A stretch of 64,000 bases of DNA. Origin: Ostreococcus lucimarinus. Lineage: Eukaryota. Positions 2,673 to 62,465 of the stretch are shown here, in pieces. The DNA lies in assembly GCA_000092065.1 (NCBI GenBank), contig CP000585.1, one strand, 5' to 3'. A program made the translations under genes and the position numbers. Numbering within the stretch: position 1 is the stretch's first letter; each line of letters opens with the position of its first letter. The notes under the pieces are model-generated. The model was given only the letters and a program-made list of their open reading frames with translations. It had not been told where the DNA came from and did not search any database.

Positions 2673-4814
2673 ATGGCCGGGTTCTGGCGCCCAGGCGCGG
2701 ACGCTCCCTCGACGTCCGCGCCGTCGACTCTCTTAACTCTCGACGTCGACGCCGATGCCGACGCCACGGGGACGTTGATTCAATTCGAGAAAAATCCGAA
2801 AGCGTCGCTGAGCGCGCGTCGTCGCGCGCTCCCGATCGCGGCGCACGCGGACGAATTGATGTACTGCGTCGAGAAACATCAAACCACGGTCATCGTCGGG
2901 CACACGGGGTGCGGAAAGACGACGCAGATACCGCAGTACCTGCGAGACGGCGGCTGGTGCGGCGGCGGCGCGACTGTGGCGGTGACGCAGCCGAGACGAG
3001 TGGCGGCGCAGACGGTGGCGCAACGCGTCGCAGAGGAGGTAGGGTGTGTGATAGGGGATACAGTTGGGTACGCGATACGATTTGAGGACGTGTGCACGCC
3101 GGGGAAGACGGAGATTAAATTTTGCACGGATGGAGCGCTGTTGCGCGAGCTCGCGGAGGATCCGTTGTTGACAAAGTATTCGGTGGTGATAGTGGACGAG
3201 GCGCACGAGCGCACGTTAGCGACGGACGTGTTGTTAGGATTATTGAAGAAAGTGCAGCGCGCGAGAAGGGATTTGCGGTTGATCGTGTCGAGCGCGACGA
3301 TTCAGGCGGAATCATTCGCGGCGTTCTTTGACGCGAGCGGCGAGGACGACGACGGCGATGGACCTTCGAGAAAGCCCATCATCATGTCCGTCGAAGGTCG
3401 AGCGCACGGTGTGTTGATTCATTATCTGGATGAACCGACCGGAGATTACGTGTTGAGCGCGGTAGAGACGGCGTTGGAAGTGCATCGAAACGAAGGACCA
3501 GGTGATATATTAATCTTTCTCACAGGCGAGGGCGAGATCGACGACGCCGTCAACTTGCTCGAAGAGGAAGCGCGAGAGATGAAACGCGATCCGAGACGGT
3601 CACACGATGCGCTGGATTTAGTGGTTTGTCCACTGTATGCGGGATTAAATCCTGCGGCGCAGTTGGAGGCGTTTCGACCGCCGCGCAGAGGCGCGCGCAA
3701 AGTCGTCGTGGCGACAAACGTTGCCGAAACGTCTGTGACGATTGAAGGTGTCGTGTACGTCATAGATTCATGCTTTGCGAAGCAAAAGGCGTTCGACCCA
3801 GAGCGCGGCATGGAGAGTTTGTTCGTCGCACCCGCGAGCAAGGCGAGTACGAACCAACGCGCCGGTCGCGCCGGTCGCGTGCGTCCGGGTAAATGCTTTC
3901 GCTTGTGCACCGAGATTGACTATCGCTCGTTGGCCGACGTCACGGCTCCGGAGATCGTTCGAAGTGACCTCGCGAGTACGGTTTTGCAGATCAAGGCGAT
4001 GGGTATTGATAATATCATGAACTTTGAGTGGGTGTCGCCGCCGCCCGCGGCGAACATGATCAAGGCGCTCGAGCTTTTATACGCGCTCAGGGCTTTGGAC
4101 GACGACGCCAAGCTCACGAGTCCGCTCGGCGTGCACTTAGCCGAAATCCCACTCGAGCCGCAGCTAGGGAAGATGCTCCTCGTGAGTGGAGAGATGGGAT
4201 GCGTAAGGGAAGCGTTGACTGTCGCGGCGTACATGCAAGTGCAGTCGTTGTGGGTCACGCATCGCGGGCAAAAGAAACGCTTAGATGAGATGCGCGACCG
4301 CTTTGCCGTGGAAGAAGGAGACGCAGTGATGATGTTGAACATCCACGACGCGTACTGTGACGCGAGAAACCAGGCAAAGTTTGCGAGCAACAACATGCTC
4401 AATCATCGAGCGCTGCTTCGGGCTGGAGATGTACGCAGTCAATTGAAAAAGCATCTCGCTAGACTGGGAGTCGTCACGAATTCGTCTTGCGGCGATGATA
4501 CGGTACCAATTCGACGTGCGATTGCTGCTGGGTTCTTTGCTAACGCTGCAACGCTCGCGCCCTACGGTGGCGGCCCCGATGGTTCCGTCTTTCATTCTCT
4601 CCGCGCGATGAGTGCGCGCGCGCGTGCTCGAGAGCTCCGAATACATCCAAGCTCCGCGCTGTTCCGCTCGCGACCGCAATGCGTGGCGTATTGCTCCGCC
4701 GTTCGCACAGATCGCGAGTACATGCGCGACGTCACCGTCGTCGAAGCCGATTGGTTGCGCGAGCTCGCGCCGCACTTCTATCGCGCGGTGAGCGCCAATC
4801 CGACGACGCAATAG
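2673..4814 (+). CDS. DHX35: DEAH-box ATP-dependent RNA helicase, DHX35-like
   Basis: ORF 2574..4814. N-terminus MAGFWRPG (ATG 2673) matches DHX35 MAAPVGPVKFWRPG. Motifs GHTGCGKTTQIPQYL, VVIVDEAHERT, SAT, FLTGEGEID, QRAGRAGR. Helicase-associated HA2/OB-type C-terminal region. Confidence 0.85.
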   Translation: MAGFWRPGADAPSTSAPSTLLTLDVDADADATGTLIQFEKNPKASLSARRRALPIAAHADELMYCVEKHQTTVIVGHTGCGKTTQIPQYLRDGGWCGGGATVAVTQPRRVAAQTVAQRVAEEVGCVIGDTVGYAIRFEDVCTPGKTEIKFCTDGALLRELAEDPLLTKYSVVIVDEAHERTLATDVLLGLLKKVQRARRDLRLIVSSATIQAESFAAFFDASGEDDDGDGPSRKPIIMSVEGRAHGVLIHYLDEPTGDYVLSAVETALEVHRNEGPGDILIFLTGEGEIDDAVNLLEEEAREMKRDPRRSHDALDLVVCPLYAGLNPAAQLEAFRPPRRGARKVVVATNVAETSVTIEGVVYVIDSCFAKQKAFDPERGMESLFVAPASKASTNQRAGRAGRVRPGKCFRLCTEIDYRSLADVTAPEIVRSDLASTVLQIKAMGIDNIMNFEWVSPPPAANMIKALELLYALRALDDDAKLTSPLGVHLAEIPLEPQLGKMLLVSGEMGCVREALTVAAYMQVQSLWVTHRGQKKRLDEMRDRFAVEEGDAVMMLNIHDAYCDARNQAKFASNNMLNHRALLRAGDVRSQLKKHLARLGVVTNSSCGDDTVPIRRAIAAGFFANAATLAPYGGGPDGSVFHSLRAMSARARARELRIHPSSALFRSRPQCVAYCSAVRTDREYMRDVTVVEADWLRELAPHFYRAVSANPTTQ

Positions 4815-4843
4815 ATAGCCGTTTTAGCGATTAAAATTACAAA

Positions 4844-5992
4844 CTAGGAGTTTCGTCGATTCACGACTGATATATCACCATCCTTTAGAACAGAAACCTC
4901 GAGAACACCACTCGATCTCGTCGCAACTTTGCCGACAACCTCGACATGAACATCCGTGTCGGGGTAGGGGTTGTCCGAGAGACTCACCGTGATGTCGCCC
5001 CTGGGTTTCGACATTTGACAACCGCGCTTTTTACCGACGACCTCGGGCAACTTGTCATCAAGAAATCTAGCATAGCCGCTCGCCGCGCTACCCGTCACGG
5101 GATCTTCGTCGATACCGACATCCGGCCCAAACCATCGCGTGTAGAAATCGTACGAATGATTCGGCCGATTTTTCACCGTCAAGAGCACGCACAAACCACG
5201 AAAACCTTGAACCATTTCAAAGTCGTACTTCATTTCCTCGATGAAGCACCTCCCCACTTCCGATATCGCCTTCAGATCGGGCGCGTGATTCATGAAGCGG
5301 TCGAAACACGCCTCAAACACCTCGTCGGGTGCATCATCCGTGTCGATTATGAAAAACAAGTCGCCGATGAAGTTGTACCGAAGCTCGTACTTCGCCTTGG
5401 AAGTCGCAGAGCTCTGCGAGTTCGAGCGCTCGTGGTCGTCGCCAAAGCAGCCTCGAATCATGTTCACGATTTCTTGAGGGTGTAAGAACCCATCCTCACC
5501 AAGCGCGTCCGGAAAGGATCTCGCGCGTTCCTCCGGAAGTGCCATCGCGTAGGACGACTCTACACCGCCGTCCAAATCTTTCCACACGAACAACGACTCG
5601 TAAGCGGCTTTCACTTGTGTTCCATCGCACACATCACGCGGCTTGCCGTATAAAAATCCAATCTTAGTGACGTGCTCGTTCCCCGGCGCTCGAAAAATCT
5701 CGTGCGCCGTCGCCATCGACGCGTGCCCGCACAGATTGATCTCGCACTTTGGCGTAAACCACCGTATGTCGTACATCCGATGCACCATCGCGCCGACGAC
5801 CTCCACGTCTGCCCGCTTCGCGAACGCCGTCTCGCTCAAGCCTAATTCGCTCGCCGCCGCCTGCATCACCGCGTCCGGCGGCCACGGTCCATCGTCCGGC
5901 AAAAGCACCACGGCCGCGGGATTCCCACTGTCGTCGCCTTTCGTCGCCGACGGGAACGCGTTCGCGATCGCGTACGCGTGCCTCGTCGTCAT
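4844..5992 (-). CDS. PhzF-family (phenazine biosynthesis-like / PBLD-type) isomerase-fold protein
   Basis: ORF 4844..6208 minus. Start taken at MTTRHAYAIANAF (ATG 5992..5990). Hallmarks GNPAAVVLLP, RWFTP..E..LCGHA and EDPVTGSA. The upstream 72 aa of the ORF read through a (GATT)n microsatellite and are rejected. Confidence 0.75.
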   Translation of the reverse strand: MTTRHAYAIANAFPSATKGDDSGNPAAVVLLPDDGPWPPDAVMQAAASELGLSETAFAKRADVEVVGAMVHRMYDIRWFTPKCEINLCGHASMATAHEIFRAPGNEHVTKIGFLYGKPRDVCDGTQVKAAYESLFVWKDLDGGVESSYAMALPEERARSFPDALGEDGFLHPQEIVNMIRGCFGDDHERSNSQSSATSKAKYELRYNFIGDLFFIIDTDDAPDEVFEACFDRFMNHAPDLKAISEVGRCFIEEMKYDFEMVQGFRGLCVLLTVKNRPNHSYDFYTRWFGPDVGIDEDPVTGSAASGYARFLDDKLPEVVGKKRGCQMSKPRGDITVSLSDNPYPDTDVHVEVVGKVATRSSGVLEVSVLKDGDISVVNRRNS

Positions 5993-34908: not shown

Positions 34909-34939
34909 CATCTCGAAATCGCCGCGGCGCTACAGTGGA

Positions 34940-35137
34940 CCCGCTTTGAAGGGTGACGAATCGCCATGTAGCGCCGCGCGATTGCACGCTAAAATCGATA
35001 TAGTGTTGGACCGACCGCGACCGACCGACGGGGCGCGACGGCGCGCGCGCGCGCGAGAACCCGCTTTGAAGGGTGACGAATCGCCATGTAGCGCCGCGCG
35101 ATTGAGCTAAAATCGATATAGTGTTGGACCGATCGCG
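34940..35137. repeat. direct repeat, 2 x about 85 bp with 120-bp period, containing an AT-richer core taaaatcgatatagtgttggacc
   Basis: cccgctttgaagggtgacgaatcgccatgtagcgccgcgcgattg..c.taaaatcgatatagtgttggaccga.cgcgac at 34940.. and 35060.. Confidence 0.85.
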
Positions 35138-35189
35138 ACGGCGCGACGGCGCGCGCGCGCGCGCGAGACGCGCGCGCGCGAGCGATCGC

Positions 35190-35300
35190 GACGCGAGACG
35201 CGGGAGACGATGCGGGAGACGTCGCGACGCGAGACGCGGGAGACGACGCGGGCGACGACGCGGGAGACGACGCGACGCGAGACGCGCGACGCGAGGCGCG
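35190..35300. repeat. degenerate 12-mer tandem array (GACGCGGGAGAC-like) in the 5' leader of the giant gene
   Basis: cgcgagacgcgggagacgatgcgggagacgtcgcgacgcgagacgcgggagacgacgcgggcgacgacgcgggagacgacgcgacgcgagacg. The ORF track reads it as a fake RETSRRETRETTRATTRETTRRE N-terminus. Confidence 0.75.
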
Positions 35301-35323
35301 AACGTCGAGGAGGGCACGGGACG

Positions 35324-38300
35324 ATGCGGCGATGGCGATGCGTCGACGCCGTGGTCGTCGGCGCGGCGTTGATGTTGATGGCGACGGTGACGTCGGCGTT
35401 GTCGGCGCGCGGCGCGGGCGCGCACCGCGATGCGGAGGGCGAAGGCGATGTCGGCGGCGTCGTCGACGACGCGGCGGACGCGAGCCGCGGCGCGAACGAG
35501 ACGGCGGGGAACGACGCGACGGCCGCGCTCGGCTGGGGATGCGACGAGACGCTCCGAGGGTGGAGAGACGAAGGGTATCGAGGGTGCCAGACGAGGACGA
35601 GGAACGGTCGCACGTGTCAGCAGTGGGATTCGCAGTCGCCCCACGGGCACTCGAGACGAAACTGCGCCAAGGGCTCGTGCGGGCGCGGGAACAACTACTG
35701 CAGAAATCCTGACGGCGAACCCACGATCTGGTGCTACACGACGAACAGAAACGTACGCTGGGAGTATTGCGATCCGTTACCTCAACCGGTGCATTGTGCG
35801 GGACGTTGGGGTTCGTACACGTCGTGCGACGCCTTGTGCGGGAGCGGACGCAAATACAAGACATACACGGTGACCAGAAACGCACAGCACGGCGGCCGCT
35901 CGTGCAGTTATAGCAACGGGGCCAAACACTATGCAGATTGTACCACCTCGTGCGCCGCTCCGACGGTTTCCATCGGTAATCCGTTGACGCGCGTGGCGTC
36001 AAACACTGTTGATTTCGGTCTCTCGGTGAAACACTCCGTGGCGTGCGGCGGCGATTGTCTAACGTCAGCTTGGTCGAGGCGATGGATGGTTAAAATCTTC
36101 GCGACGGTCAGAAAAGACGGCGTTTCGTGTTCATCCTACGGCGCATATCTCCCTTGCAAGCGCTGGGACGATTTTCGAGACGACACGACGCACCCATCCC
36201 AGTTACTGGGATTGACCACGGACACGGGCGCGCTCGATCCGGGAACGTACGTGATCGAGTACGTGGCCGTCTTGAATCACTACATCACGAAGCAAGAGCT
36301 GTCGCGCACGACAGGGACGCACACTTTCTCCATCGAGCGCGGTTGCGAATCGATTTTACCTTCGGCGTCGTCGGACAGCGGCGTGGAAAACTCTGAACTC
36401 ACCAAGTACGTCCTGTTGTCGGCGGATGATTTCGTCCGCGCGCCGTGCGACAAACTTCACGACGTGCGGGAATCGATCTTTCGCAAGTACGACACCAATC
36501 CAACCGACGGCGTACTCGATTACGACGAGCTCGACCGCGCGATTCGCGAACAAGGTGGAGACGGGTACATCTTGAAAGTGTGGAACCAGATTCGCCCGCT
36601 TCGTCTGTCGCTCGGCCACTTCATGGAGGCGATCGTCGCGCCGCACACGTGCGCGTCGTCTGAAAGCGTGCAGTCCGTATCTTTTAAGAGCGTCGTGTAT
36701 CCGTCGACCGAGGCTGGTCGAGAGACGACGCGTAAGGATTGCGCGAAAAACGCCGGAGCGATGGCTGTGGACTGGGGGTACGGACCTAAAAATCCACCTA
36801 AGTCGGGAGACACTGTGTGCGTCTTTGTGGACGGCGTCTTGTTTCAAGTCAACGAGCCGAAAAACACAGCGCCGCCGCACAGTAAGGATCATCACTCCGA
36901 GGTGGCTGGACTGTGGACCCTGACAAAAATTACCGATAAGCGACCCGTCGTGGGTGCGATCGGGGACGTGCAACCGTCTCTCGTCGCGCAGTTCACCTTT
37001 GACACCGAGCGCGAGATTGGAGACACCGTCAGAAGCGATCGCATTTTCTCCGCGGCGCCGCTCGCCTCGGGAGAAAAGGCTAGACCGTACATTTCGTATT
37101 CAGGTCAGCATATATCCGCGTGCTCGGGAGCGTCCGGTGGTCAGTGCATCGTAGCACGCGGAGACGGTTTTAACTACGTCGGCGATTCACTCGGCGGCGC
37201 CGTCGCGTTTTCAGCTTGGGTCAGGGTCGCGGAGAGCTCGGCGACGACGTTGATTGAATTCAGCGGTACGGATGGACAACTGAGGAATTCTTTCACGTTG
37301 GTCATGGACTGTTCTTCATCCGCGTGTACGCTGCGCGCGTCGTACGATTCTGTCGGAACTGGTGGCAATCTCGCAAAGAAAGAAATTTCGGCGCCAATGC
37401 GTCAGTGGGTGCTCGTGGGTTTCACGCTCAGCCATAACGCCGGCTTGAAACTGTTCGCATTGCCGGACGATTCGACGTCGACGACGACTGCGAGTCACCC
37501 CTCGTGGCCGAAAGACACGCTTCCAAAACTTCCAAACATCAAGCTCTTCTCAGCGTCGAGGGGCGGTGGTCAGCAGCACATCGACGACGTTCGATTGTAC
37601 GCCGGCGTCATGGACATGGAAATGTTTTTCATCGCGCGCGACTGCGGACGAGGCACGTTGTGCGCAATGCGCGCGCACGCGACTCCTTCGCATCGCCGCG
37701 TCGTCTGCGTGTTCACGCAAGTCAAGGGCGCGAAGACGGGACAGCCTGCGTGCGCCGGCGCGTTGTACTACGACGGAACGGCGATCGACGTACGCGCATC
37801 GATGGATCTCGCTGGAGTCTTTTTTGAGTTTCGAGACACCGCCTGGGAAGAAAAGTCGTTTGAAATCGAGCGTAGAGCGCCGGCGGTCAACGGTAACTTT
37901 GACTCCAAATTTGATACCGTCGTTCTGATTGAAGGCGGGTTGAAGGGCTGCGCCGCAAAGTTCAGCTCCATCACATACATAGATAGGGATGCCTCGTACA
38001 CGCCCTACTCCGAATGGCTGTATCGCATCACGACGAAGAATCCGGATTCAGACGACGCAAATGAGATAACGTACTTGTTGTCTCCCCAGCTCACTTTCCG
38101 CACGCCTTGGATGTCGCAGATCGAGGGACGCGTGCTGGCCGGCGCGTCCACTGAGGGAGTTCGAAACGTGCGAATGTGTGCAGAATTCGACACATTCGTG
38201 ACGCGCACGCCGGCGACTGAAGATTTTCAAGCTGACGTTGAGTATGAGAATCTCGCCGCTTTCAAAAGTGTGACGCATTCAAACAGAGCTCAAACGTCTA

Positions 38301-41300
38301 CGTCATACGTCGTCACGGATGGCGATGATGCGGGCAAAAGCAGCAACGTCGACGCTAACGAGCACATACGAATCAATCTCGGCAGTTGGGCATCCGTGTC
38401 GACTGTGGAGGTGTGCCATAAACGTCTGGAATCATCGGCGACGTCGATGTTCAGCGCGCACGTCCAAGATTACGACCCGGGTAAAAGTACTTACTTTGGA
38501 CACGATTGTTTGATGGACTCGGTGAGGGACGTGTGCGACGAGACGCTCCGAGGCCAGGGAGGCATAGGGTATCGAGGGTGCCAGACGAAGACGAGGAGCG
38601 GCCGCACGTGTCAGCAGTGGGATTCGCAGTCGCCCCACGGGCACTCGAACCGAAATTGCGCCAAGGGCTCGTGCGGGAACAACTACTGCAGAAATCCTGA
38701 CGGCGCACCCACGATCTGGTGCTACACGACGGACAGATACAAACGCTGGGAGTATTGCGATCCGGATCCGTTACCACACGCGTGTTTGACGTACACGTGT
38801 AAAGGCACCGACGTGAATTCGTTTCACGGACAGTACGTCACCGTGAAAGCCCTGACGAAGGCTCAAGTGACGGAAATCAAGGTCAACGGTCGCAAGACGA
38901 AATGCAAGTACACCGCGGTCACCGACGATGACGGCGAATACGCGATGGATCTCAAAGACACCTCAGGCAAGCTTCCGGTGAAAGCGACGCTGCACATCGG
39001 GGCTTACAAGGAGGAAATTTTCCCTGAAACTACGGAAGTCTTGATTGACTCAAAGAGGAACGCTCAAGGACAGTACCCGGTCCCGAAGAGTCAGGCGCAC
39101 AACGTGTTGCTCATTCTTCGAGAGAATTTCGAAACCTCCGAGCTTGGAATGCTTCGAAACGACAGGCGAACCGAAACCACGTCTTCGCCGCACGCGTCGG
39201 CGAATGGAGTTTACGTGGACGAATTTGCAGCTATGCAAGAGCTCGGATACGACGAGTTTGAAAACGCTGATGAATTTGAAAACGGTTTGCAAAACGACCA
39301 AACAGAGTACGATGTCCATCACGATGGCGGAAATGAGACGGCGGGGAACAACACGACGGCCGCGCTCGGCTGGGGATGCGACGAGACGCTCCGAGGGTGG
39401 AGACACGAAGGGTATCGAGGGTGCCAGACGAGGACGAGGAGCGGTCGCACGTGTCAGCAGTGGGATTCGCAGTCGCCCCACAGGCACTCGAGACGAAACT
39501 GCGCCAAGGGCTCGTGCGGGAACAACTACTGCAGAAATCCTGACGGCGAACCCACGATCTGGTGCTACACGACGGACAGACGCAAACGCTGGGAGTATTG
39601 CAATCCGTTACCTCAACCAGTAAACTGCTACGGTTATTGGGGACAGTGGTCGAATGAGTGTACTCCAACTTGCACGAGCGGCCGACGTTACAGATGGAGG
39701 TACTACAGAATCTCGAGATATCCTAGGCATGGCGGTCTGAGTTGCTCGTACAAAAACGGGCAAAAGGGCTGGGGGTACTGTCCGCCGAAACCGTGTCCAG
39801 TGAATTGTGATGGCAGGTTTGGATCGTGGTCGACGTGTAGTGCGAAGTGTGGTTGGGGCAAGAGACAAAAGACGTTCACAATACACACAGCAGCGGCACA
39901 CGGCGGCCAATCGTGTAGTCACAAGAACGGGTACACGGTAACCGAAAACTGTTATTCCCAACACTGTCCGCCACCCCCGCCGCCACCCCCGCCACCAGGC
40001 GCCGCCGAGGTGGAGGAATTCATCGAGTGGGTGCTTTTGAAGGGCGTCGAATCAAATCGAAAAGGGCATGTCGAAAGGACGCTAACAGGGTCAGGATGGA
40101 CGGCGGGTGCTGTGAGTAAACGCGCCATTCGTGGAGCATCCGATACCGTTCGAGGCGTCTCCGCCGTGTGCAAAGAGTCGACGAGCCAACACAGGATGAT
40201 TGCGATGAATTCACAGTCGACTGCGGATTCCACCTCTTACCAAAGTCTTGATTTCGCAATTTACTGTTTTCCTTGGAACTCGGTGAGTTATGTACGAGTC
40301 TATGAGAGAGGCAAAGCTTTTGGGAATGCTGCAAAGGCGTATAGTGAGAGCGCCGTCGTTCAGATCGCGCTCAACGATGCCGGCAAGGTGGAGTATTTCG
40401 TGGACGGTTTGAAGCTCATGACGAGCGATCAGACGGTGACGTATCCACTTCACGTTGATGTGAGCCTACACGAACAAGGCGCGTCGCTGGAGGATGTGCG
40501 CTGGACTAGGAGAGTCTCGTCACCTCCGCCCTCACCTCCACCTTCGCCGCCTCCGTCCCCTCCGCCTTCGCCGCCTCCGCCCCCTCCGCCTTCCCCGCCT
40601 CCGCCGAATCACGAACTCGAGGACGTTGATTTCGACGGATCGGGTAATGTGATGCGGAGCGAGTTGGTCGACTACATTGAAGCTATCACAATATCGTCCG
40701 AAGGTGGCCACGTCATCATTACGGACGATGTATGGGCGAAGCTCGATCGGGATGAAGACGGCGTGCTCGACGCGACTGAATTTAAGGACGTTGTGAACCG
40801 TATCGAGGCGCAACAGTTGGTCGTGGAGCCAATCATCGTGTTCCCACTTCAAGATGCCCAGTACATGTACGATTTCAGCATGTTTCAGACGTCTGACGAC
40901 GCTGCAAATAGCGGCCCGCGCACGGGCCACGTGCTAGAAGGCGGCGAATCGTGTGAAAATTTGATGATTGTGAGAAGTCGCTCCGCCACTCTGCCGTTCG
41001 GAAACGCTCAATGGACAAAATTTTACGAGACATTGCGAGACGAGCAACACCGTTTCGAGTGCAGAAATCTGAGTAAAATCGAGGTTCCAGCAATCGACGT
41101 CGGCGCGGTGGACAGCACGTACGTCATACCCGTGCTCGCGCACAAGAACGGCACGAATTACCTCATACTCGACACCACGTCCGTCGCGGTGCATACGTCG
41201 AACGAGACGAAAGCGTTGGATATGATGCATCGAATGACTCGAGATAACTTTCGTCTGCGCGTTCAAGCCCAAAAGCGGCTTCCGGATATCTTGCACAGCT

Positions 41301-44300
41301 TTAACAAGCCTCCCGTGCCGCGGGGTGCGTTGCCCGAGGCGCCGAGTGACGAGGAAATCGTCGAACAGGTATTTTCAGATCAAGTGGCGTTGGATAGGGT
41401 CACTTTATCAGTCAAGCATAAACGCGTCGAAGAGAAAGACTTTACGGATGACACGACAGTTATCGTAAACGGTGCCGTACTGTTCCCCAGGGATCTCGTC
41501 GAACAATCCAACGACTGCGGACTCTTCAAGGCGACTATTGAAGTATTCGAACCCGAAGGAGAAGTTGAGGAATACCATACGGATGAGCGAGGCTTCTTCA
41601 AGTTTGCTCTCACTCGTGGGAAAACGTTCAACATACGCCCAAAATACAAGAATCACACGATATGCTACGCTGGCAAAACCATAGAGAACGCTGTCGAAGA
41701 CGTGCACACATGCAAAGGACGCAGCGTGGTCAAGACGCTTCCAAACGTTCAAGATGGCAACTTTGTATTTTTCACCGACGTCACGCGAGGTGTCATCGAC
41801 CTTGGACTATACCACGGAGAGTGTGAACGGCGATACAGCGGTGCTGTGTTTAAGATCACGCCGATCAATGGATGCCACGCTCCAAAGTTTGTGAAGAGCG
41901 AAGAAGTTGAAGGGTGGAATGTCGCAAACACCGGGATGAGTGAGGACGCTAAATTTTGGCCGTTCGCCGCCATGGATTACTCGATCAAGCTCGTGTCGGG
42001 GCCTGACGTGAATGGCATCCAACCGTTGATTGAGAATGAGCCGTGGGCGGACGGATGTGGTACGGAGCCTGGCTCGATGGTGGCTTTCTTTCGATCACGA
42101 AACGCCCATGAACGAATGGCGGCCATGCGCGACGACTACGATTTGGTGACAATTCGGTACAAGTATCACGGCTACATTTGCGTTGAGATCGTGGACATTC
42201 CCAAAATACGAGATCCATTGGAAGTCTGTTACGATCCAAACGAAGCGGACGGTAATCTCACGATTCAACATTTCCTCGGAACTACGACTTCCGAAGATTT
42301 GGGCAGCGTGAGCGGTCAGATTCTTCTCCAAGCGAAAGTGTTCGAATTGCATCTTGATCAAGTCGACGGCGAGCCTGTGCTTTCAAAATGCTTTGAAGCG
42401 TTACCTAACAAGGAAGCTCAGACGGGCAGCACTCTGCTCAGTTTCAGACAGTCGGTCACCGATGAAGACGACAATGAGTGCCATCCAAACCGAGGCGGCG
42501 GACCACTGTGTGATTTTGACACGACGATCGAGCCTGCGTCCGAACTCGTCATTTGGAATACAGACGGTGATACCAGCGTGGAGGTCGTCGCTGGTACGCC
42601 TAATCTCGCCGGTAATCATCGACGAACTGTGGAATTCACCATCAAGCGCTTCGATACGTACAAACTCGTCACCGCGTACGCAAAGCGTGAGCTCATACCT
42701 CTGGGCTCGAAACCTCGAGGAGAAGGGCTCTTCGGACCGGACAGTGACGATGTCTACTGGGCGACTGTGCCTTTGGAGGGTTTGGTCTACACCGTCGTGC
42801 ACGATCCACCCGGTGGTCTCTCGTACGCGGAATTATCGACGGGCTCTCAAATTGGACTTCAGTTTGACTTGGTTGGGAAACGTATGGCGAGCGAGGGCAA
42901 AGGTGGGGCGTCGAAGAAACAACTTCCCGAAATCGATAAGTCCGTCGATGTTGGTTTCAACGCCGGATGGATCGCCGAAGGTTCTTTGTCGACGGACCTG
43001 CATTTGATCTCGTCAAAAGGCGAGTTCAAAACTAAAACGGATGGTCCAACGATGCGTATAACGAGCAAAGAAGACAAGGGGTGGAGTCTCGAAACCACGA
43101 CAGAACGAACGATTCGTTCGAGCAAGGACGCAGGTACTCCTGGGAGAGCAGGCGATGTCATTCTCGGCGGTGGTATCGAGCTCGTGTACAAAATATCGGA
43201 CATCTTGGATGTCGTAAACGATGTTCGAACACTCAAAAAGCCTTGCTTGTACGTGTATGGCGAAATCACGTGGTTACCGCGAAAGCCGACGTCGTACATC
43301 ATGAGCGTCGCGTCGATCGAGACACAAGTCATGCCTAATCTGTACTACTTGCGAACGTTGGTGCAGGAAGGTGGCATCGAAGCAGACGGGTCGGAAATGT
43401 TTTATGACTGCGCTTCCGGCGCGACGAGTAAAGAAATGACCAAGTGCACGAAAGAGGATCAAATCGAAGCTTGGATGCAATATCTCGACAACAAGATTGA
43501 CCTTTGGCGTCGAACACTTGAATGGTCTTCTCCGAAAGTGTTCACCATCGATGAGGGTGGTGTGAAGACGAAGTTTTACGAAGCCATCGAGAGAATCACA
43601 AAACCGGCGTCTGATGGTGGTTTTATGCACACGAACTACAAAGTCCAGGTGGAACAATTCAAGAAGGCGTACGCCAGACCGATTAAGGATATTATCGAAG
43701 AGGTCGGCAGTGCTTGGGATTCAAGTTTCTTCATGATGCCTTTCAACGGTATCGGCCCACCACCGTTTTTTGACGACCCGAGAGTAATTGGTGGCGTGGA
43801 TTGGATGCTTGATTCGCGGTACTGGGAGTATGGTAAAGGCGACACAGCTACGTACAGTAGAATCCGTGGGATTACACCTCGGACGGATTCTGACGCGAGA
43901 ATCGCCGCTTTTGCCTCCTTGGATGCCATTGTCAATACCGGAGGCATCATCGACACGGTGACGAAGAATTTAGACGCGCCGAAGAAACTCGCCGCCCGTC
44001 GCAAGGCGGCTGCCGCCGCTGCTGCTAAGATAAGTAAATCGTATGCTGCTAAGCAAAGGCTATTAAAGGCGGCCTCTAAATGGAAAAGTCTTGCAAAGAA
44101 ACCACCGCCGGGATTCATCACGAGATCCGCCCAAAAGCTCACGGCGGCCAAGAACATGGCCACAAAGGCGGCCAAGACCACAGCCGGACAAGTTGCGGGC
44201 GCCATCTTGCTCAGCGCGGCGGTAGCGGGCGCAGTCGCAGCTGGCCCGGCGATGGATCAGATGGGCTACAAGTATGCCGCCTATCCACGCAAGTATTACG

Positions 44301-46834
44301 AGGATGGCATACCGGCATTTGAAGAAAACTTCTTCGACGATGATTCTGGAGTGCTCACAAAAGAAGACCAAGCCAAAGATGAAGACGGGATGCGAGGAGC
44401 CTATACGTGGGGGATGTTCAGTTCGGCGACGAACGATTTGTTGCGACAATTTAAAAGTTGTGCCGGGAGAGAGTGCAATCGCGATGATATCAGAGTCGAA
44501 ACGCTGTCGATGAGCAACACATCTTTCGGCGAAGACTACTTACTTTGGAACACAAATGACGCACCTGATGTGTCGCGGAGGGTCGTGGCGTCCTTCACGG
44601 GTGGACAAGCTGCTACGGGTATGAATGTGACGACGAACGTGAACGCTACAGACGGTGTACCCGACAAGGGGACGTTATTATTGACGTTCGGCGGCGGTGG
44701 TCACACCGCAGATTATTCATTTTCTTCGAATGAAAAGATTGCAGATCTTCACACCAGCCTCGGTGTTCAACTGTCAGCAAAGCAGTCCAACAAATACAAA
44801 CTCAAACTCGGAGGCTTGCTCGGCTCGACCGTTCAACTTGCCATGGCGCTCGGCGGGGTGGACGATGAGGCTGTCTATACCTTCAAAAAGTCATTCGCTG
44901 AAGATCGAACGTTCGCTTGGAACAGACACGCCTCTCTGAAAACGTTGTACAGTCTAGGTGACGCTCAACTCGGAGATAAGTTTGTCGTGCAGGTTGGAGA
45001 AGACGTGCGCTTTGGTACGCCGGTGTTCATCACAAAGGGTGGCAGAAGCTCGTGTCCCGGTGAACCTTTGACGATGTTTCGACAGGCGGGCTTTTCCTTA
45101 TCCAAAGAAACTTCGTTTAACGAAAATCTGAATCCTGATGAAAGTGCTTTGTTACACTTGAAATTGACCAACGAGTCGCCGTACAAGGAAACGTTTCCGC
45201 TCGGAATGCGCATTGTTGACGGTCTCGTGATGTCGGTCCACAAAGTGATTCAGGACATGTACGAAACGCTGGCCAAGGAAGACGTGACAGGGTTGGACGT
45301 TTTGAAAGCCGTCGATAATTCGATCGCGTCGCTCGCTATCGGGAAAGATGCCGACGTCATCAAAACAATGAAAGAAAACGCGCGAGTGGCCGTGGAAGAA
45401 CACTCGGCGACAGCAGTGGACGTCGCAGCGGTGGTTGTACAAGCCTCGCGGAGAGCTCCACCAACGTTTGAAGACTTGCAGAACATCGAGTTCAGTATGG
45501 GTGGAGAGGAAGTATACTTTGGCGACGTATTACCTCTAAAATTTGTGGACGGTGAAGATTTGAAAGTTCAGAAGAAGGTACTTGAGACGTCTTTCGCGCT
45601 TACCGTGACGGCTGCGAGCCCGTCGAGTCTTCGACTGGAGCACGTCGCCGTCGTCGTCATGAGTTTATGCGAACACGAAATCAGCCTAATGTCAAAGTTC
45701 GGTCGAGAACCGATCAGCACGAACACTCTTCCGCTAGGATTGATGACGTGGAATCAAAAGTGTCCGAAAGTCGCCTTCGACGGTTCCACAGTGGCGGATT
45801 ACTTGTTCTCGAGCGTCTCATCTGCCACGCCCAAGCCACTCAAGTTGACCGTCTTCAATCCGGACGGAGCTTTGTTATGGCCTGGCTCTTCGGATGACGT
45901 CCGAGCTATCAACCCGAATCTTCGATTCGTTCGGTTGCAATATCGTCCCGCGAGCGGCGGCGAATGGATCACGGCAAAGTCTGAAGACAGCGATCCAAAG
46001 TTCAGTTACAAGAAAAACCTGTTATGCGACGGGTCACGTCTCGGTGGTTGCACTTTTGACTGGGACGTCAATAACCAGTACGAAAAGCTTCTCAGTGGCT
46101 TTAAGGATAACATTTACGAGTTGAGATTGAAGAACTTTTGCTTTGGCACGGAAAGTCGTCCGATCAGCGCCTTGGCGGACAGCACCGTTCACGAGTACGT
46201 CTCTGATCAAATCCTCACGCTCAGAGTGGACACCAAGACGCCGATTCCCGGCAGGTCGTATCCTTCGTTCAAGCGATTTTACACTGTCGAGTTCCCCGAA
46301 GCGATCGACTGCTCGGATCAAAAAGTTGCCATCACGAAGAAACGCGCATCCTGCGGAGACGACGGGCAAAGCGTCAATCAAGCCGTGAGCGAAGACGCAA
46401 TCAAGTCAGGCTTTGACTTCCAATGCTCCAATAACGAGGTTGGCTTCAAGTGGATGGTTGGATTTCCTAACACTGAAGTGGGTCAGTACGCCGTCGAAGT
46501 GAGCGGTGTTCGTGACGAAGCCGGGAACGCCGCCGCGCCGTTTACCTTCGTCATGGACGCGAACTGCGCGTCTTCTCAAAAGCTGTCCCTCGCGCGCTTC
46601 GGTCTAGGCGCGAAGAAACGGTCGACTGAGGAAACGGGCGATGTGCCAACGAGTGCATTTGACGTTCCAATCACATCGATGCCCGGCACGTGGGTTCTCG
46701 CGGGGTGCTGCCTCGTCGCCGTCTTCGCCGTCGTCGTCGGCGTTTTCCGTCGCGCGCCGCGCGTCGAGGACAAGGAAAAATCTCCACTCTCCTTTGTCGC
46801 CCGTCGACACCCGCCGTACGGCGCGGTGGTGTAA
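35324..46834 (+). CDS. giant secreted/TM-anchored mosaic protein: signal peptide, 3 kringle domains, TSP1 repeats, polyproline (SPPP)n spacers, EF-hand pair, C-terminal TM anchor. Single exon, 3,836 aa.
   Basis: ATG 35324 followed by MRRWRCVDAVVVGAALMLMATVTSALSA. Kringles with CRNPDGEPTIWCYTT..RWEYCDP at three places. TSP1-like WGQWSNECTPTCTSGRRYR and CSAKCGWGKRQKT. PPPPPPPPPPGAAE and SPPPSPPPSPPPSPPPSPPPPPPPSPPPPN. EF-hand-like DFDGSGNVMRSELVDYIE and DRDEDGVLDATEFKDVV. TM near the C-terminus WVLAGCCLVAVFAVVVGVF followed by RRAPR. Confidence 0.8.
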   Translation: MRRWRCVDAVVVGAALMLMATVTSALSARGAGAHRDAEGEGDVGGVVDDAADASRGANETAGNDATAALGWGCDETLRGWRDEGYRGCQTRTRNGRTCQQWDSQSPHGHSRRNCAKGSCGRGNNYCRNPDGEPTIWCYTTNRNVRWEYCDPLPQPVHCAGRWGSYTSCDALCGSGRKYKTYTVTRNAQHGGRSCSYSNGAKHYADCTTSCAAPTVSIGNPLTRVASNTVDFGLSVKHSVACGGDCLTSAWSRRWMVKIFATVRKDGVSCSSYGAYLPCKRWDDFRDDTTHPSQLLGLTTDTGALDPGTYVIEYVAVLNHYITKQELSRTTGTHTFSIERGCESILPSASSDSGVENSELTKYVLLSADDFVRAPCDKLHDVRESIFRKYDTNPTDGVLDYDELDRAIREQGGDGYILKVWNQIRPLRLSLGHFMEAIVAPHTCASSESVQSVSFKSVVYPSTEAGRETTRKDCAKNAGAMAVDWGYGPKNPPKSGDTVCVFVDGVLFQVNEPKNTAPPHSKDHHSEVAGLWTLTKITDKRPVVGAIGDVQPSLVAQFTFDTEREIGDTVRSDRIFSAAPLASGEKARPYISYSGQHISACSGASGGQCIVARGDGFNYVGDSLGGAVAFSAWVRVAESSATTLIEFSGTDGQLRNSFTLVMDCSSSACTLRASYDSVGTGGNLAKKEISAPMRQWVLVGFTLSHNAGLKLFALPDDSTSTTTASHPSWPKDTLPKLPNIKLFSASRGGGQQHIDDVRLYAGVMDMEMFFIARDCGRGTLCAMRAHATPSHRRVVCVFTQVKGAKTGQPACAGALYYDGTAIDVRASMDLAGVFFEFRDTAWEEKSFEIERRAPAVNGNFDSKFDTVVLIEGGLKGCAAKFSSITYIDRDASYTPYSEWLYRITTKNPDSDDANEITYLLSPQLTFRTPWMSQIEGRVLAGASTEGVRNVRMCAEFDTFVTRTPATEDFQADVEYENLAAFKSVTHSNRAQTSTSYVVTDGDDAGKSSNVDANEHIRINLGSWASVSTVEVCHKRLESSATSMFSAHVQDYDPGKSTYFGHDCLMDSVRDVCDETLRGQGGIGYRGCQTKTRSGRTCQQWDSQSPHGHSNRNCAKGSCGNNYCRNPDGAPTIWCYTTDRYKRWEYCDPDPLPHACLTYTCKGTDVNSFHGQYVTVKALTKAQVTEIKVNGRKTKCKYTAVTDDDGEYAMDLKDTSGKLPVKATLHIGAYKEEIFPETTEVLIDSKRNAQGQYPVPKSQAHNVLLILRENFETSELGMLRNDRRTETTSSPHASANGVYVDEFAAMQELGYDEFENADEFENGLQNDQTEYDVHHDGGNETAGNNTTAALGWGCDETLRGWRHEGYRGCQTRTRSGRTCQQWDSQSPHRHSRRNCAKGSCGNNYCRNPDGEPTIWCYTTDRRKRWEYCNPLPQPVNCYGYWGQWSNECTPTCTSGRRYRWRYYRISRYPRHGGLSCSYKNGQKGWGYCPPKPCPVNCDGRFGSWSTCSAKCGWGKRQKTFTIHTAAAHGGQSCSHKNGYTVTENCYSQHCPPPPPPPPPPGAAEVEEFIEWVLLKGVESNRKGHVERTLTGSGWTAGAVSKRAIRGASDTVRGVSAVCKESTSQHRMIAMNSQSTADSTSYQSLDFAIYCFPWNSVSYVRVYERGKAFGNAAKAYSESAVVQIALNDAGKVEYFVDGLKLMTSDQTVTYPLHVDVSLHEQGASLEDVRWTRRVSSPPPSPPPSPPPSPPPSPPPPPPPSPPPPNHELEDVDFDGSGNVMRSELVDYIEAITISSEGGHVIITDDVWAKLDRDEDGVLDATEFKDVVNRIEAQQLVVEPIIVFPLQDAQYMYDFSMFQTSDDAANSGPRTGHVLEGGESCENLMIVRSRSATLPFGNAQWTKFYETLRDEQHRFECRNLSKIEVPAIDVGAVDSTYVIPVLAHKNGTNYLILDTTSVAVHTSNETKALDMMHRMTRDNFRLRVQAQKRLPDILHSFNKPPVPRGALPEAPSDEEIVEQVFSDQVALDRVTLSVKHKRVEEKDFTDDTTVIVNGAVLFPRDLVEQSNDCGLFKATIEVFEPEGEVEEYHTDERGFFKFALTRGKTFNIRPKYKNHTICYAGKTIENAVEDVHTCKGRSVVKTLPNVQDGNFVFFTDVTRGVIDLGLYHGECERRYSGAVFKITPINGCHAPKFVKSEEVEGWNVANTGMSEDAKFWPFAAMDYSIKLVSGPDVNGIQPLIENEPWADGCGTEPGSMVAFFRSRNAHERMAAMRDDYDLVTIRYKYHGYICVEIVDIPKIRDPLEVCYDPNEADGNLTIQHFLGTTTSEDLGSVSGQILLQAKVFELHLDQVDGEPVLSKCFEALPNKEAQTGSTLLSFRQSVTDEDDNECHPNRGGGPLCDFDTTIEPASELVIWNTDGDTSVEVVAGTPNLAGNHRRTVEFTIKRFDTYKLVTAYAKRELIPLGSKPRGEGLFGPDSDDVYWATVPLEGLVYTVVHDPPGGLSYAELSTGSQIGLQFDLVGKRMASEGKGGASKKQLPEIDKSVDVGFNAGWIAEGSLSTDLHLISSKGEFKTKTDGPTMRITSKEDKGWSLETTTERTIRSSKDAGTPGRAGDVILGGGIELVYKISDILDVVNDVRTLKKPCLYVYGEITWLPRKPTSYIMSVASIETQVMPNLYYLRTLVQEGGIEADGSEMFYDCASGATSKEMTKCTKEDQIEAWMQYLDNKIDLWRRTLEWSSPKVFTIDEGGVKTKFYEAIERITKPASDGGFMHTNYKVQVEQFKKAYARPIKDIIEEVGSAWDSSFFMMPFNGIGPPPFFDDPRVIGGVDWMLDSRYWEYGKGDTATYSRIRGITPRTDSDARIAAFASLDAIVNTGGIIDTVTKNLDAPKKLAARRKAAAAAAAKISKSYAAKQRLLKAASKWKSLAKKPPPGFITRSAQKLTAAKNMATKAAKTTAGQVAGAILLSAAVAGAVAAGPAMDQMGYKYAAYPRKYYEDGIPAFEENFFDDDSGVLTKEDQAKDEDGMRGAYTWGMFSSATNDLLRQFKSCAGRECNRDDIRVETLSMSNTSFGEDYLLWNTNDAPDVSRRVVASFTGGQAATGMNVTTNVNATDGVPDKGTLLLTFGGGGHTADYSFSSNEKIADLHTSLGVQLSAKQSNKYKLKLGGLLGSTVQLAMALGGVDDEAVYTFKKSFAEDRTFAWNRHASLKTLYSLGDAQLGDKFVVQVGEDVRFGTPVFITKGGRSSCPGEPLTMFRQAGFSLSKETSFNENLNPDESALLHLKLTNESPYKETFPLGMRIVDGLVMSVHKVIQDMYETLAKEDVTGLDVLKAVDNSIASLAIGKDADVIKTMKENARVAVEEHSATAVDVAAVVVQASRRAPPTFEDLQNIEFSMGGEEVYFGDVLPLKFVDGEDLKVQKKVLETSFALTVTAASPSSLRLEHVAVVVMSLCEHEISLMSKFGREPISTNTLPLGLMTWNQKCPKVAFDGSTVADYLFSSVSSATPKPLKLTVFNPDGALLWPGSSDDVRAINPNLRFVRLQYRPASGGEWITAKSEDSDPKFSYKKNLLCDGSRLGGCTFDWDVNNQYEKLLSGFKDNIYELRLKNFCFGTESRPISALADSTVHEYVSDQILTLRVDTKTPIPGRSYPSFKRFYTVEFPEAIDCSDQKVAITKKRASCGDDGQSVNQAVSEDAIKSGFDFQCSNNEVGFKWMVGFPNTEVGQYAVEVSGVRDEAGNAAAPFTFVMDANCASSQKLSLARFGLGAKKRSTEETGDVPTSAFDVPITSMPGTWVLAGCCLVAVFAVVVGVFRRAPRVEDKEKSPLSFVARRHPPYGAVV
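35507..35776 (+). repeat. kringle-encoding repeat copy 1 (near-identical at nucleotide level to copies 2 and 3)
   Basis: gctcggctggggatgcgacgagacgctccgagggtggagagacgaagggtatcgagggtgccagacgaggacgagg...aacaactactgcagaaatcctgacggcgaacccacgatctggtgctacacgacg. Confidence 0.8.
38536..38766 (+). repeat. kringle-encoding repeat copy 2
   Basis: Same block with a few substitutions (gccaggga..., gacggcgcaccc). Antisense ORF 38432..38644 repeats the MPVGRLRIPLLTRA antisense ORF artefact. Confidence 0.8.
39343..39606 (+). repeat. kringle-encoding repeat copy 3, followed by TSP1 repeats
   Basis: Near-identical to copy 1, including the preceding gacggcgggaac...cgacggccgcgctcggctgggga. Confidence 0.8.
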
Positions 46835-60656: not shown

Positions 60657-62465
60657 TCAATCTTGAGGGAATCCGTATTGTTCGAGTAATCGAAGTGTCA
60701 CGCCGTTGGTCCAGCCGAAACCACGTTGAGGGATGTATTCGCCGCCTTTACCCACGCCGTCCTCGGTCGAGCGCACGTCGTACTTTTCGTGCATGTAGCC
60801 CGTTGACTTCCACGCTTGATGCGCGGTGCGGAGCCACGAGTGCGCGAGCGTCTTCGCGTACTCTTCCTCGCGAGGGGCGAAAATTTGTATCGCTTCGACA
60901 ATCATGTGAGTCTCCGGCGCCCAAGCGTTAGGCCAATCCCATTGCTGACCGCTCTCGACGAGTGAGGTCGCGATGCCTTTGTCGGTGACCAACTTGGACT
61001 TTTTCAACGACTCGACGACTTCGTACGCTTGATCGCTGTCGGGATCGCAAGCGCCGCACCAAAGCGGAGTAAAATCGCTCGTAAACGGGCTCTCAGATGC
61101 CGCCGTGAGATCATCGCGATCGCGCACGATTCCTCGGGTGTCTTCGCCCATGAGCGGTTCGAACGCCATGTCTCGCCACCGCTTGACGTCGTCGTCCCAA
61201 AGCACGGCGTCAATCGCGCGCCGCCGCACCTCGCTCGCACGGGAGAACTTCTCGAGCAAATGGTTCAAGTACACGCGCTCGGCGAAGAGCTCGTCTTCGT
61301 TTTCCAACGACACTAATGCCTCGCGGGCGAGCAAAGCGATTTGCGTCTCCACTCGTAGCATAAATCCGTTCAAGTCGGATGGAATGATGTTGCACGTGCG
61401 AATCGTCTCCAAGTTATCGCCGTCTAGGAACCATCTCGAGCTGAAGTCGAAGCCGCTCTCCGCCGCGCTAGCAAGATGTCGATATATCTTACGCTTAGCT
61501 TCGAGCTTGGCCACGGCGTCCTCCACCTTTCTGGTCGCTCGGCGCGCCACCTCGACGTCTTCGCGATAGCTCTCTGGCCTCGGACGCGTGGTGTTGGCAA
61601 AATATCGCGACAGCTCGTGCGTCTCTCCGGTTTCCGTGTCACGAATCGTCACCGTGCGTTCACTTCGAGTGAGATAGGCGTATTCTTGCACCAGCAACGG
61701 CAACGCCTGTCGCAACCACTCGACGTCTCGCGTCGCTTGAAACACCTCGGCGACGCACGACGACAACAACGGCGGCTGAGATCGATTCAAATAGTACACG
61801 CGCGCGCCGTTGGGCACGAATCCGTACGTGGTGACCATGTACAACAAATTATTCGTCACTCCCAGCGCCGTGGCCGGCATCTCGCTCGTTAACAACCCCA
61901 AAACGATCCAATACGTATCCCAGTAGTAGGTTTCCCTAAAACGTTCCCCCGGCACCACCGCCGGGTACGGCAATCGAATCCTCGAGCTCGTCGTCCGTCG
62001 CGCCTCGCCCTCCGCGCCGACTTCTTCCTCAGCGTAGTCATCCGCGTCCAACCGCGCGAGCACGCGCCACAGCTCGTGCACGTGCGTCGCAAACTCCCTC
62101 GACTTTTCGCACCTCGCCCCTCTCGCCACCGCCGGCTCGCTTCGCCAGTCCGCCAGTTCCGGCATCTTAGACCTCTCCCTCGGTCCGCTCTCGAAGTGTT
62201 CGTTCAAGAATTCCCGCGCCGCCACGCTACACGTCGCCGCTCGCGACTGCGCCAGCGCCTCGAACACCTTCGCCGGCGGTGATCTCGACCGCGTGTCCAC
62301 GAAATCCTTCGAGTCGCGCCAAATCGCCGCTCGGTGCACCGCCGCCAGTATCGCCGCCGTGCAAAACGCCGCGTACGGCGCCTGCGCGCCGTCCGTCGCC
62401 GCGCCGCCGTCTTCCTCGACGTCGTCTTCGCTCGTCATCGCGCTGTGCGCCGCGTCCGCGAGCAT
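60657..62465 (-). CDS. TRE: trehalase (glycoside hydrolase family 37)
   Basis: 602-aa ORF. DSKDFVD, PGERFRETYYWDTYW and QWDWPNAWAP signatures. Confidence 0.85.
   Translation of the reverse strand: MLADAAHSAMTSEDDVEEDGGAATDGAQAPYAAFCTAAILAAVHRAAIWRDSKDFVDTRSRSPPAKVFEALAQSRAATCSVAAREFLNEHFESGPRERSKMPELADWRSEPAVARGARCEKSREFATHVHELWRVLARLDADDYAEEEVGAEGEARRTTSSRIRLPYPAVVPGERFRETYYWDTYWIVLGLLTSEMPATALGVTNNLLYMVTTYGFVPNGARVYYLNRSQPPLLSSCVAEVFQATRDVEWLRQALPLLVQEYAYLTRSERTVTIRDTETGETHELSRYFANTTRPRPESYREDVEVARRATRKVEDAVAKLEAKRKIYRHLASAAESGFDFSSRWFLDGDNLETIRTCNIIPSDLNGFMLRVETQIALLAREALVSLENEDELFAERVYLNHLLEKFSRASEVRRRAIDAVLWDDDVKRWRDMAFEPLMGEDTRGIVRDRDDLTAASESPFTSDFTPLWCGACDPDSDQAYEVVESLKKSKLVTDKGIATSLVESGQQWDWPNAWAPETHMIVEAIQIFAPREEEYAKTLAHSWLRTAHQAWKSTGYMHEKYDVRSTEDGVGKGGEYIPQRGFGWTNGVTLRLLEQYGFPQD

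Follow-up and report, generated by a model that had tools for sequence, protein, structure and literature searches.

Near-identical kringle modules in a giant intronless gene of Ostreococcus lucimarinus probably reflect recent intragenic duplication and ongoing gene conversion

A 64,000-nucleotide (nt) stretch of Ostreococcus lucimarinus DNA (contig CP000585.1 of assembly GCA_000092065.1; hereafter the window) contains a giant intronless gene, whose putative surface protein carries three kringle modules (K1, K2, and K3; Table 1). The three modules are nearly identical in DNA. Very probably, they were generated by recent intragenic duplication and still exchange sequence by non-allelic gene conversion. 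Gene conversion is already well known as a mechanism, and this locus is an unusually clean example of it. Within the searchable literature, full-text searches that combine kringle with Ostreococcus or other Mamiellales return no paper discussing the giant gene or kringles in these algae.

Nucleotide identity among the three kringles

Two exact repeat probes (22 and 28 nt) each match exactly three sites in the window, compared with zero expected from shuffled sequences. Over 225 codon-aligned nt, K1 and K3 are 96.4% identical, with 8 differences and one 6-nt indel, and K2 is 92.0% identical to K1 and 92.4% identical to K3. The longest exact runs between copies are 46–59 nt. These values bear out the original prediction, made from the letters of the window, that one gene holds three near-identical kringle blocks; the block coordinates given there are within ~10 nt of the refined boundaries.

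The high-identity block of K1 and K3 spans ~295 nt (35497–35791 and 39334–39622) and includes the leader NETAGN(D/N)(A/T)TAALGWG and the tail PLPQPV. The leader common to K1 and K3, which had also been predicted, is 43 nt long. The K2 repeat block (38534–38775) consists of the kringle alone, with no match to leader or tail. Between the copies lie 2.8 kb and 0.6 kb of coding sequence that is unrelated, as had been claimed for the intervening protein. K1/K3 identity is 93–100% over most of 35497–35791, dips to 83% near the 3' end, and at 35791 drops from 90% to ~50–60% within ~30 nt. The block therefore has a sharp 3' edge, since the adjoining DNA of the TSP1 modules after K1 and K3, which are homologous in protein and serve as an internal control, is just 44–58% identical.

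The few differences between copies mostly change amino acids. The ratios of nonsynonymous to synonymous differences are 8:0 for K1/K3, 15:3 for K1/K2, and 14:3 for K2/K3. Across the three pairs, the proportion of synonymous differences (pS) is 0–0.063 and that of nonsynonymous differences (pN) is 0.045–0.085. The synonymous-site check proposed with the prediction gives a synonymous divergence (Ks) of 0 for K1/K3 and ~0.066 for K2 versus either. The pattern is thus not that of ordinary conserved domains, with mostly synonymous divergence. In addition, the GC content at third codon positions is 0.77–0.79 in the kringles versus 0.62 ± 0.065 in the rest of the coding sequence (CDS) of the giant gene, which fits GC-biased conversion.

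Origin of K2 and K3

A homology search with a 1485-amino-acid (aa) query of the giant protein was combined with searches using the 188-aa K2–K3 linker. For the linker, an exhaustive HMMER search yields 24 homologues and a word-index search yields none. A ~54% identical orthologue is XP_022840001.1 of O. tauri ('Kringle, conserved site', 3762 aa; P0255, DNA L004). It shares the overall architecture of the giant protein, the C-terminal transmembrane (TM) helix, and the YG-x-x-V tail, but has a lone kringle at another site and none at the K2 and K3 sites.

The K2 site in O. tauri is a short Cys-bounded loop (...HECLMTHARASFDNPKEYACLSYSC...). The site is kringle-free in all eight homologues that cover it (O. 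tauri and seven others), and among these eight the CRNP motif is present only in O. tauri. At the K3 site of O. tauri, an acidic linker runs directly into the TSP1 pair. At the K1 site, the leader (NETDGNATAELGG) is kept and is followed by a non-kringle Cys-rich stretch. The sole O. tauri kringle lies at a fourth site, in a LamG-like region. In a sister species, represented by contig L003, the K1 site holds a kringle that has diverged strongly, with a pN of 0.37 versus a background of 0.11; window K1 and L003 K1 differ with a pN of 0.37 and a pS of 0.51, whereas the pS of window K1 versus K3 is 0. The synonymous distance (dS) from the window to the sister species is 0.35, and that to O. tauri is saturated.

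Because the orthologues have no kringle at those sites, the comparison shows K2 and K3 to be derived in-frame insertions in an intronless gene. The paralogue Ks values are well below 0.35, indicating that the copies last shared sequence after the sister-species split. The O. tauri and L003 orthologues have the leader too, which makes it ancestral at the K1 site; K1 was consequently the most likely source from which the K3 block, with its leader, was copied. The TSP1 pair after K3, being present in O. tauri, is ancestral as well.

A mobile-element origin was considered and rejected: inspection of the raw sequence by eye reveals neither target-site duplications nor terminal repeats where K2 and K3 join their surroundings. 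The only junction feature noted by eye is a tandem of GATCCG at the 3' boundary of K2.

The orthologue in contig L004 has in-frame stops within 4053–5877; examples are one that follows CYKNT and one that interrupts GVN*FHG. Since the reference O. tauri protein continues across these positions, the stops are either sequencing errors or the mark of a pseudogenised allele.

Mosaic alleles in other assemblies

The window was set against seven other assemblies that contain the giant gene: L001, L005, and L006 from ENA and L007, L008, L009, and L011 from JGI. All the allele data come from metagenome assemblies. The seven are 98–99.8% identical to the window and each has three kringles, with spacings of 2988–2994 and 843–851 nt, so that the copy number is three in 8/8 assemblies examined (window included). 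The contigs of L005 and L006 are 235 kb and 653 kb long and were apparently assembled from long reads, to judge by their Flye-style naming and the frameshifts in their gene calls.

In the window, L001, and L009, three independent assemblies, K1 and K2 are equal base for base and K3 differs by a 6-nt indel only. The location of this indel varies by haplotype among K1, K2, and K3. L001 and L009 have the K1-type 6-nt insertion in K3; in L005, L006, L007, L008, and L011, K2 has the insertion as well as other K1/K3 states; in L007 and L011, K2 carries the WRDE segment of K1/K3. In L005, K1 and K3 are the same (0/225 differ). L005 K1 differs from window K1 at 18 sites plus the indel, and from window K3 at 12 sites, against a background of 1%; paralogues within this genome are thus more alike (0 differences) than K1 copies between genomes (18 differences). 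L008, from a separate project, begins inside K1, and the covered part equals L005 K1 and is joined to the unique flank of K1. Two haplotypes, L005/L008 and L001/L009, are therefore each found in two independent projects.

Between alleles, the kringle cores differ by 2–6% versus 0.6–1.0% in the rest of the CDS (odds ratios 2.7–7.3, p from 1.6e-3 to 2e-16). The allelic difference in most cases matches the state of another window copy (104/147, 71%), whereas ~4% is expected from random mutation. The four-gamete test gives 44 incompatible site pairs and a minimum number of recombination events (Rm) of at least 6 within 231 nt.

These alleles bear on whether recent duplication suffices, with young copies that acquire ordinary point mutations and exchange nothing. 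The Ks values of 0–0.066 and the lack of K2 and K3 in orthologues are both compatible with youth alone. However, duplication alone does not predict that 71% of allelic differences are paralogue states, that kringle cores diverge 3–7 times more than the remainder of the gene when alleles are compared, that K1 equals K3 in L005/L008 while both are unlike the window copies, or that Rm is at least 6. It is strongly disfavoured and we regard it as improbable. The original prediction offered very recent duplication and ongoing gene conversion as alternatives; the low Ks, the absence of K2 and K3 in orthologues, and the mosaic alleles support both.

Assembly artefacts and constraint as alternatives

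Near-identity or copy number could in principle be created by collapse, mis-joining, or polishing during assembly. Public assemblies do go wrong at this locus. The TARA_145_SRF scaffold encoding P0244 is mis-joined, in that its K3 leader is followed by the body of K1 and by the sequence downstream of K1; L010 (JACLAB010009002.1) is chimeric, with window 35327–38053 joined to an inverted copy of 39565–43093; and several public contigs stop or frameshift within the kringles. The window itself, however, is not collapsed, because the seven independent assemblies keep three copies with the same spacing. Each copy has unique flanks, and the agreement of the window, L001, and L009 in K1 and K2 argues against an artefact, which is a very improbable source of the pattern. 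The suspicion that the locus is a site of assembly collapse or expansion is thus borne out only in part: it does not hold for the window, although public contigs do mis-join, end, or frameshift in the kringles.

Several points weigh against duplication with ongoing exchange as the explanation. The population evidence comes wholly from assembled metagenomes rather than phased reads or clones. Short-read assemblers can make chimeric paths through repeats with exact runs of 46–59 nt, the polishing of long-read contigs can homogenise copies, and some contigs (L006) have obvious indel errors inside the kringles. The 6-nt indel lies within a GCGGG(C/A) mini-repeat, where slippage could recreate it. 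The L005/L008 haplotype has states absent from every other copy (Q28N and Y76F), so part of its difference needs new mutation or an outside donor. In the sister species, contig L003 ends ahead of the K2 and K3 sites and so covers neither. Nevertheless, most of the mosaic signal is probably real, because two mosaic haplotypes each occur in two unrelated projects and the window, L001, and L009 agree in K1 and K2.

Constraint rather than recency, in the form of strong purifying selection on the kringle fold, preferred codons, or an overlapping function at the nucleotide level (antisense open reading frame (ORF) or RNA structure), might be suggested by the well-conserved protein of this kringle subfamily (84% aa identity to the kringles of an unrelated gene, metagenome contig L002) and by the antisense ORFs that overlap every copy, but it is scarcely credible: those equally conserved L002 kringles are only 72–75% identical to the window kringles in DNA, with a pS of 0.65–0.70, differences are mostly nonsynonymous (32:4 among segregating variants) and would alter the antisense reading too, and long antisense ORFs occur throughout the GC-rich window. 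Codon bias and protein constraint are accordingly ruled out as the cause of the identity by the L002 control. The recurring antisense ORFs are, as predicted, by-products of the repeat. The antisense VPVGRLRIPLLTRA is the reverse reading of CQQWDSQSPH, has a leading M only if GTG is taken as the start, and is not a gene.

The L002 gene (500–4903, P0026, from a JGI metagenome), an unrelated coiled-coil/kringle gene, contains two kringles that are 92.3% identical in DNA, with a pS of 0.10. P0059, a near-identical variant of the P0026 protein, has one kringle only. This is a second case of kringle homogenisation plus copy-number change or assembly collapse.

Proposed history and possible selection

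For the molecular route of the original insertion, we infer that the giant gene would have acquired kringle modules by in-frame duplication of ~230–295 nt DNA blocks. The leader, the kringle, and the PLPQPV tail would have been copied from the K1 site to a site just upstream of the pre-existing TSP1 pair, giving K3, and a leaderless kringle would have been inserted into the Cys-bounded loop, giving K2. Afterwards, short tracts would have been exchanged by non-allelic (ectopic) gene conversion between copies that are 0.8–3.8 kb apart on one DNA molecule. Such exchange would hold synonymous divergence near zero and would redistribute the few, mostly amino-acid-changing variants over the three positions, making natural alleles mosaic.

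Among 23 copies, the segregating variants comprise 32 nonsynonymous and 4 synonymous changes (ratio 2.1) and concentrate at kringle residues 7–12, 36–43, and 69–72. There is no sign of purifying selection at the variant positions. Positive selection was considered, with a pN/pS of at least 1 (2.1 pooled), and set aside, the counts being too small for significance: binomial estimates by hand give P of ~0.15 for the 8:0 split and ~0.1 for 32:4, and neutrality and diversifying selection are not separable on these counts.

A selective value of shuffling is conceivable. The kringles might be a built-in cassette system, in which intragenic conversion redistributes a limited set of loop-residue variants among the three kringle positions of a giant cell-surface protein. 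The resulting combinatorial diversity of alleles would be subject to diversifying selection, which could act, for instance, through recognition by mating partners, grazers, or prasinoviruses. We regard this as rather unlikely on present evidence. If it were so, the same recombination would have driven the lineage-specific kringle gains at four sites, and an intronless gene would have received new domains with no exon shuffling.

Comparison with known systems

The closest known case is the Kringle IV type-2 (KIV-2) repeat of human apolipoprotein(a) (LPA). LPA KIV-2 units are arranged in tandem, are ~5.5 kb long, contain introns, and vary greatly in copy number. The two loci are alike in that kringles within one gene are near-identical in DNA, the region is difficult to assemble, and the mechanism is the same. 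They differ in that the window units are 230–295 nt of pure coding sequence, dispersed in an intronless ORF and fixed at three; the window kringles do not form a head-to-tail tandem array with variable copy number of the LPA type. In LPA KIV-2, variants common to copies are treated as paralogous sequence variants from duplication or gene conversion (PMC4378929).

The window also resembles dispersed paralogues under concerted evolution in its short tracts, sharp edges, paralogue-state swaps, raised allelic difference, and higher GC content at third codon positions. However, its paralogues are domains in one CDS of a haploid picoalga, not separate genes.

In a marine alga that is abundant worldwide, the locus offers a natural example of in-frame domain gain in an intronless gene, and of newly gained domains that evolve in concert. 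It is prone to mis-assembly and mis-calling in short-read Ostreococcus population and metagenome data, and variant calls in the kringles should be treated as swaps between paralogues rather than as point mutations. If shuffling is selected, the giant gene would be a candidate surface-recognition locus in a host–virus model system.

Kringle fold and layout of the giant gene

Pfam PF00051 scores 173.4 bits in the giant protein, against a gathering cut-off of 34.3, over 3 separate stretches, and phmmer matches to plasminogen kringles in the PDB are 1e-15 to 2e-14 per domain. Each copy contains C1, GRTC, NNYCRNPD, IWCYTT, WEYC, and the terminal Cys, which make up the six-cysteine framework and signature motifs. 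K1, K2, and K3 are therefore predicted to adopt the triple-disulfide kringle fold.

An extra Cys pair, NCAKGSC, is present in all three kringles (35663–35680, 38657–38674, and 39500–39517), along with a Cys after GYRG. The O. tauri and L002 kringles lack the pair, which may make an extra disulfide bond. In K2, Ala replaces Glu in the NPDGE anionic centre (E58A).

Besides three kringles and three TSP1-like modules, the giant protein has a large conserved C-terminal ectodomain, and ~2000 of its residues have no Pfam match. Judging by its predicted signal peptide and TM helix, it is probably a secreted, single-pass membrane protein.

Table 1 Features of the giant gene and their positions in the window
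Feature	Position	Strand	Remarks
Giant-protein CDS, intronless, 3836 aa	35324..46834	+	single uninterrupted ORF
In-frame alternative ATG	35210	+	
Signal peptide	35324-35413	+	
K1 leader NETAGNDATAALGWG	35495..35539	+	directly 5' of K1
Kringle K1, first to last Cys	35540..35797	+	comparison core 35540-35770
K1 6-nt (Arg-Gly) insertion	within 35681-35689	+	
Antisense reading VPVGRLRIPLLTRA	35612..35647, 38606-38641, 39449-39484	-	
TSP1-like module adjoining K1	35795..35953	+	homologous to post-K3 module; Pfam TSP1_spondin score under cut-off
Kringle K2, without leader	38534..38785	+	core 38534-38758; set in Cys-bounded loop
K3 leader NETAGNNTTAALGWG, copy of K1 leader	39332..39376	+	directly 5' of K3
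Kringle K3	39377..39628	+	core 39377-39601
Two TSP1-like modules 3' of K3	39626..39967	+	also in O. tauri
Proline-rich spacers (PPPPPPPPPP; SPPP repeats)	39968-40000 and 40517-40609	+	
EF-hand pair	40622-40792	+	
TM helix, single, C-terminal	46691-46747	+	short tail after it ends YGAVV

The genes around the giant gene are ordinary eukaryotic housekeeping genes. A neighbouring trehalase (60660–62465) is 100% identical to a protein in a 90% cluster with O. lucimarinus CCE9901 XP_001418096.1. Neither the giant protein, with either ATG taken as its start, nor a neighbouring helicase has a match in exact look-ups, and public gene models probably differ from the window ORFs.

Just 5' of the giant gene is a direct repeat of ~120 bp (34939–35047 and 35059–35165), whose two copies share an exact stretch of 46 nt. 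Next comes a 12-nt periodic GACGCGGGAGAC-like array (35173–35304) that overlaps the alternative ATG. The repeats in 34939–35304 are possibly a promoter or 5' untranslated region repeat structure.

After the single TM helix, most complete homologues (P0255, P0264, P0268, P0273, and P0276) end in a conserved Y-G-[AS]-[TV]-[VL] tail, which in the window occupies 46748–46831. The exceptions are P0272, which ends in YGAVDVSV, and the frameshifted P0271, which has no YG tail. The tail looks like a sorting or PDZ-type motif. The second proline-rich spacer differs in length among species, as it is much longer in L004, an O. tauri-like metagenome contig.

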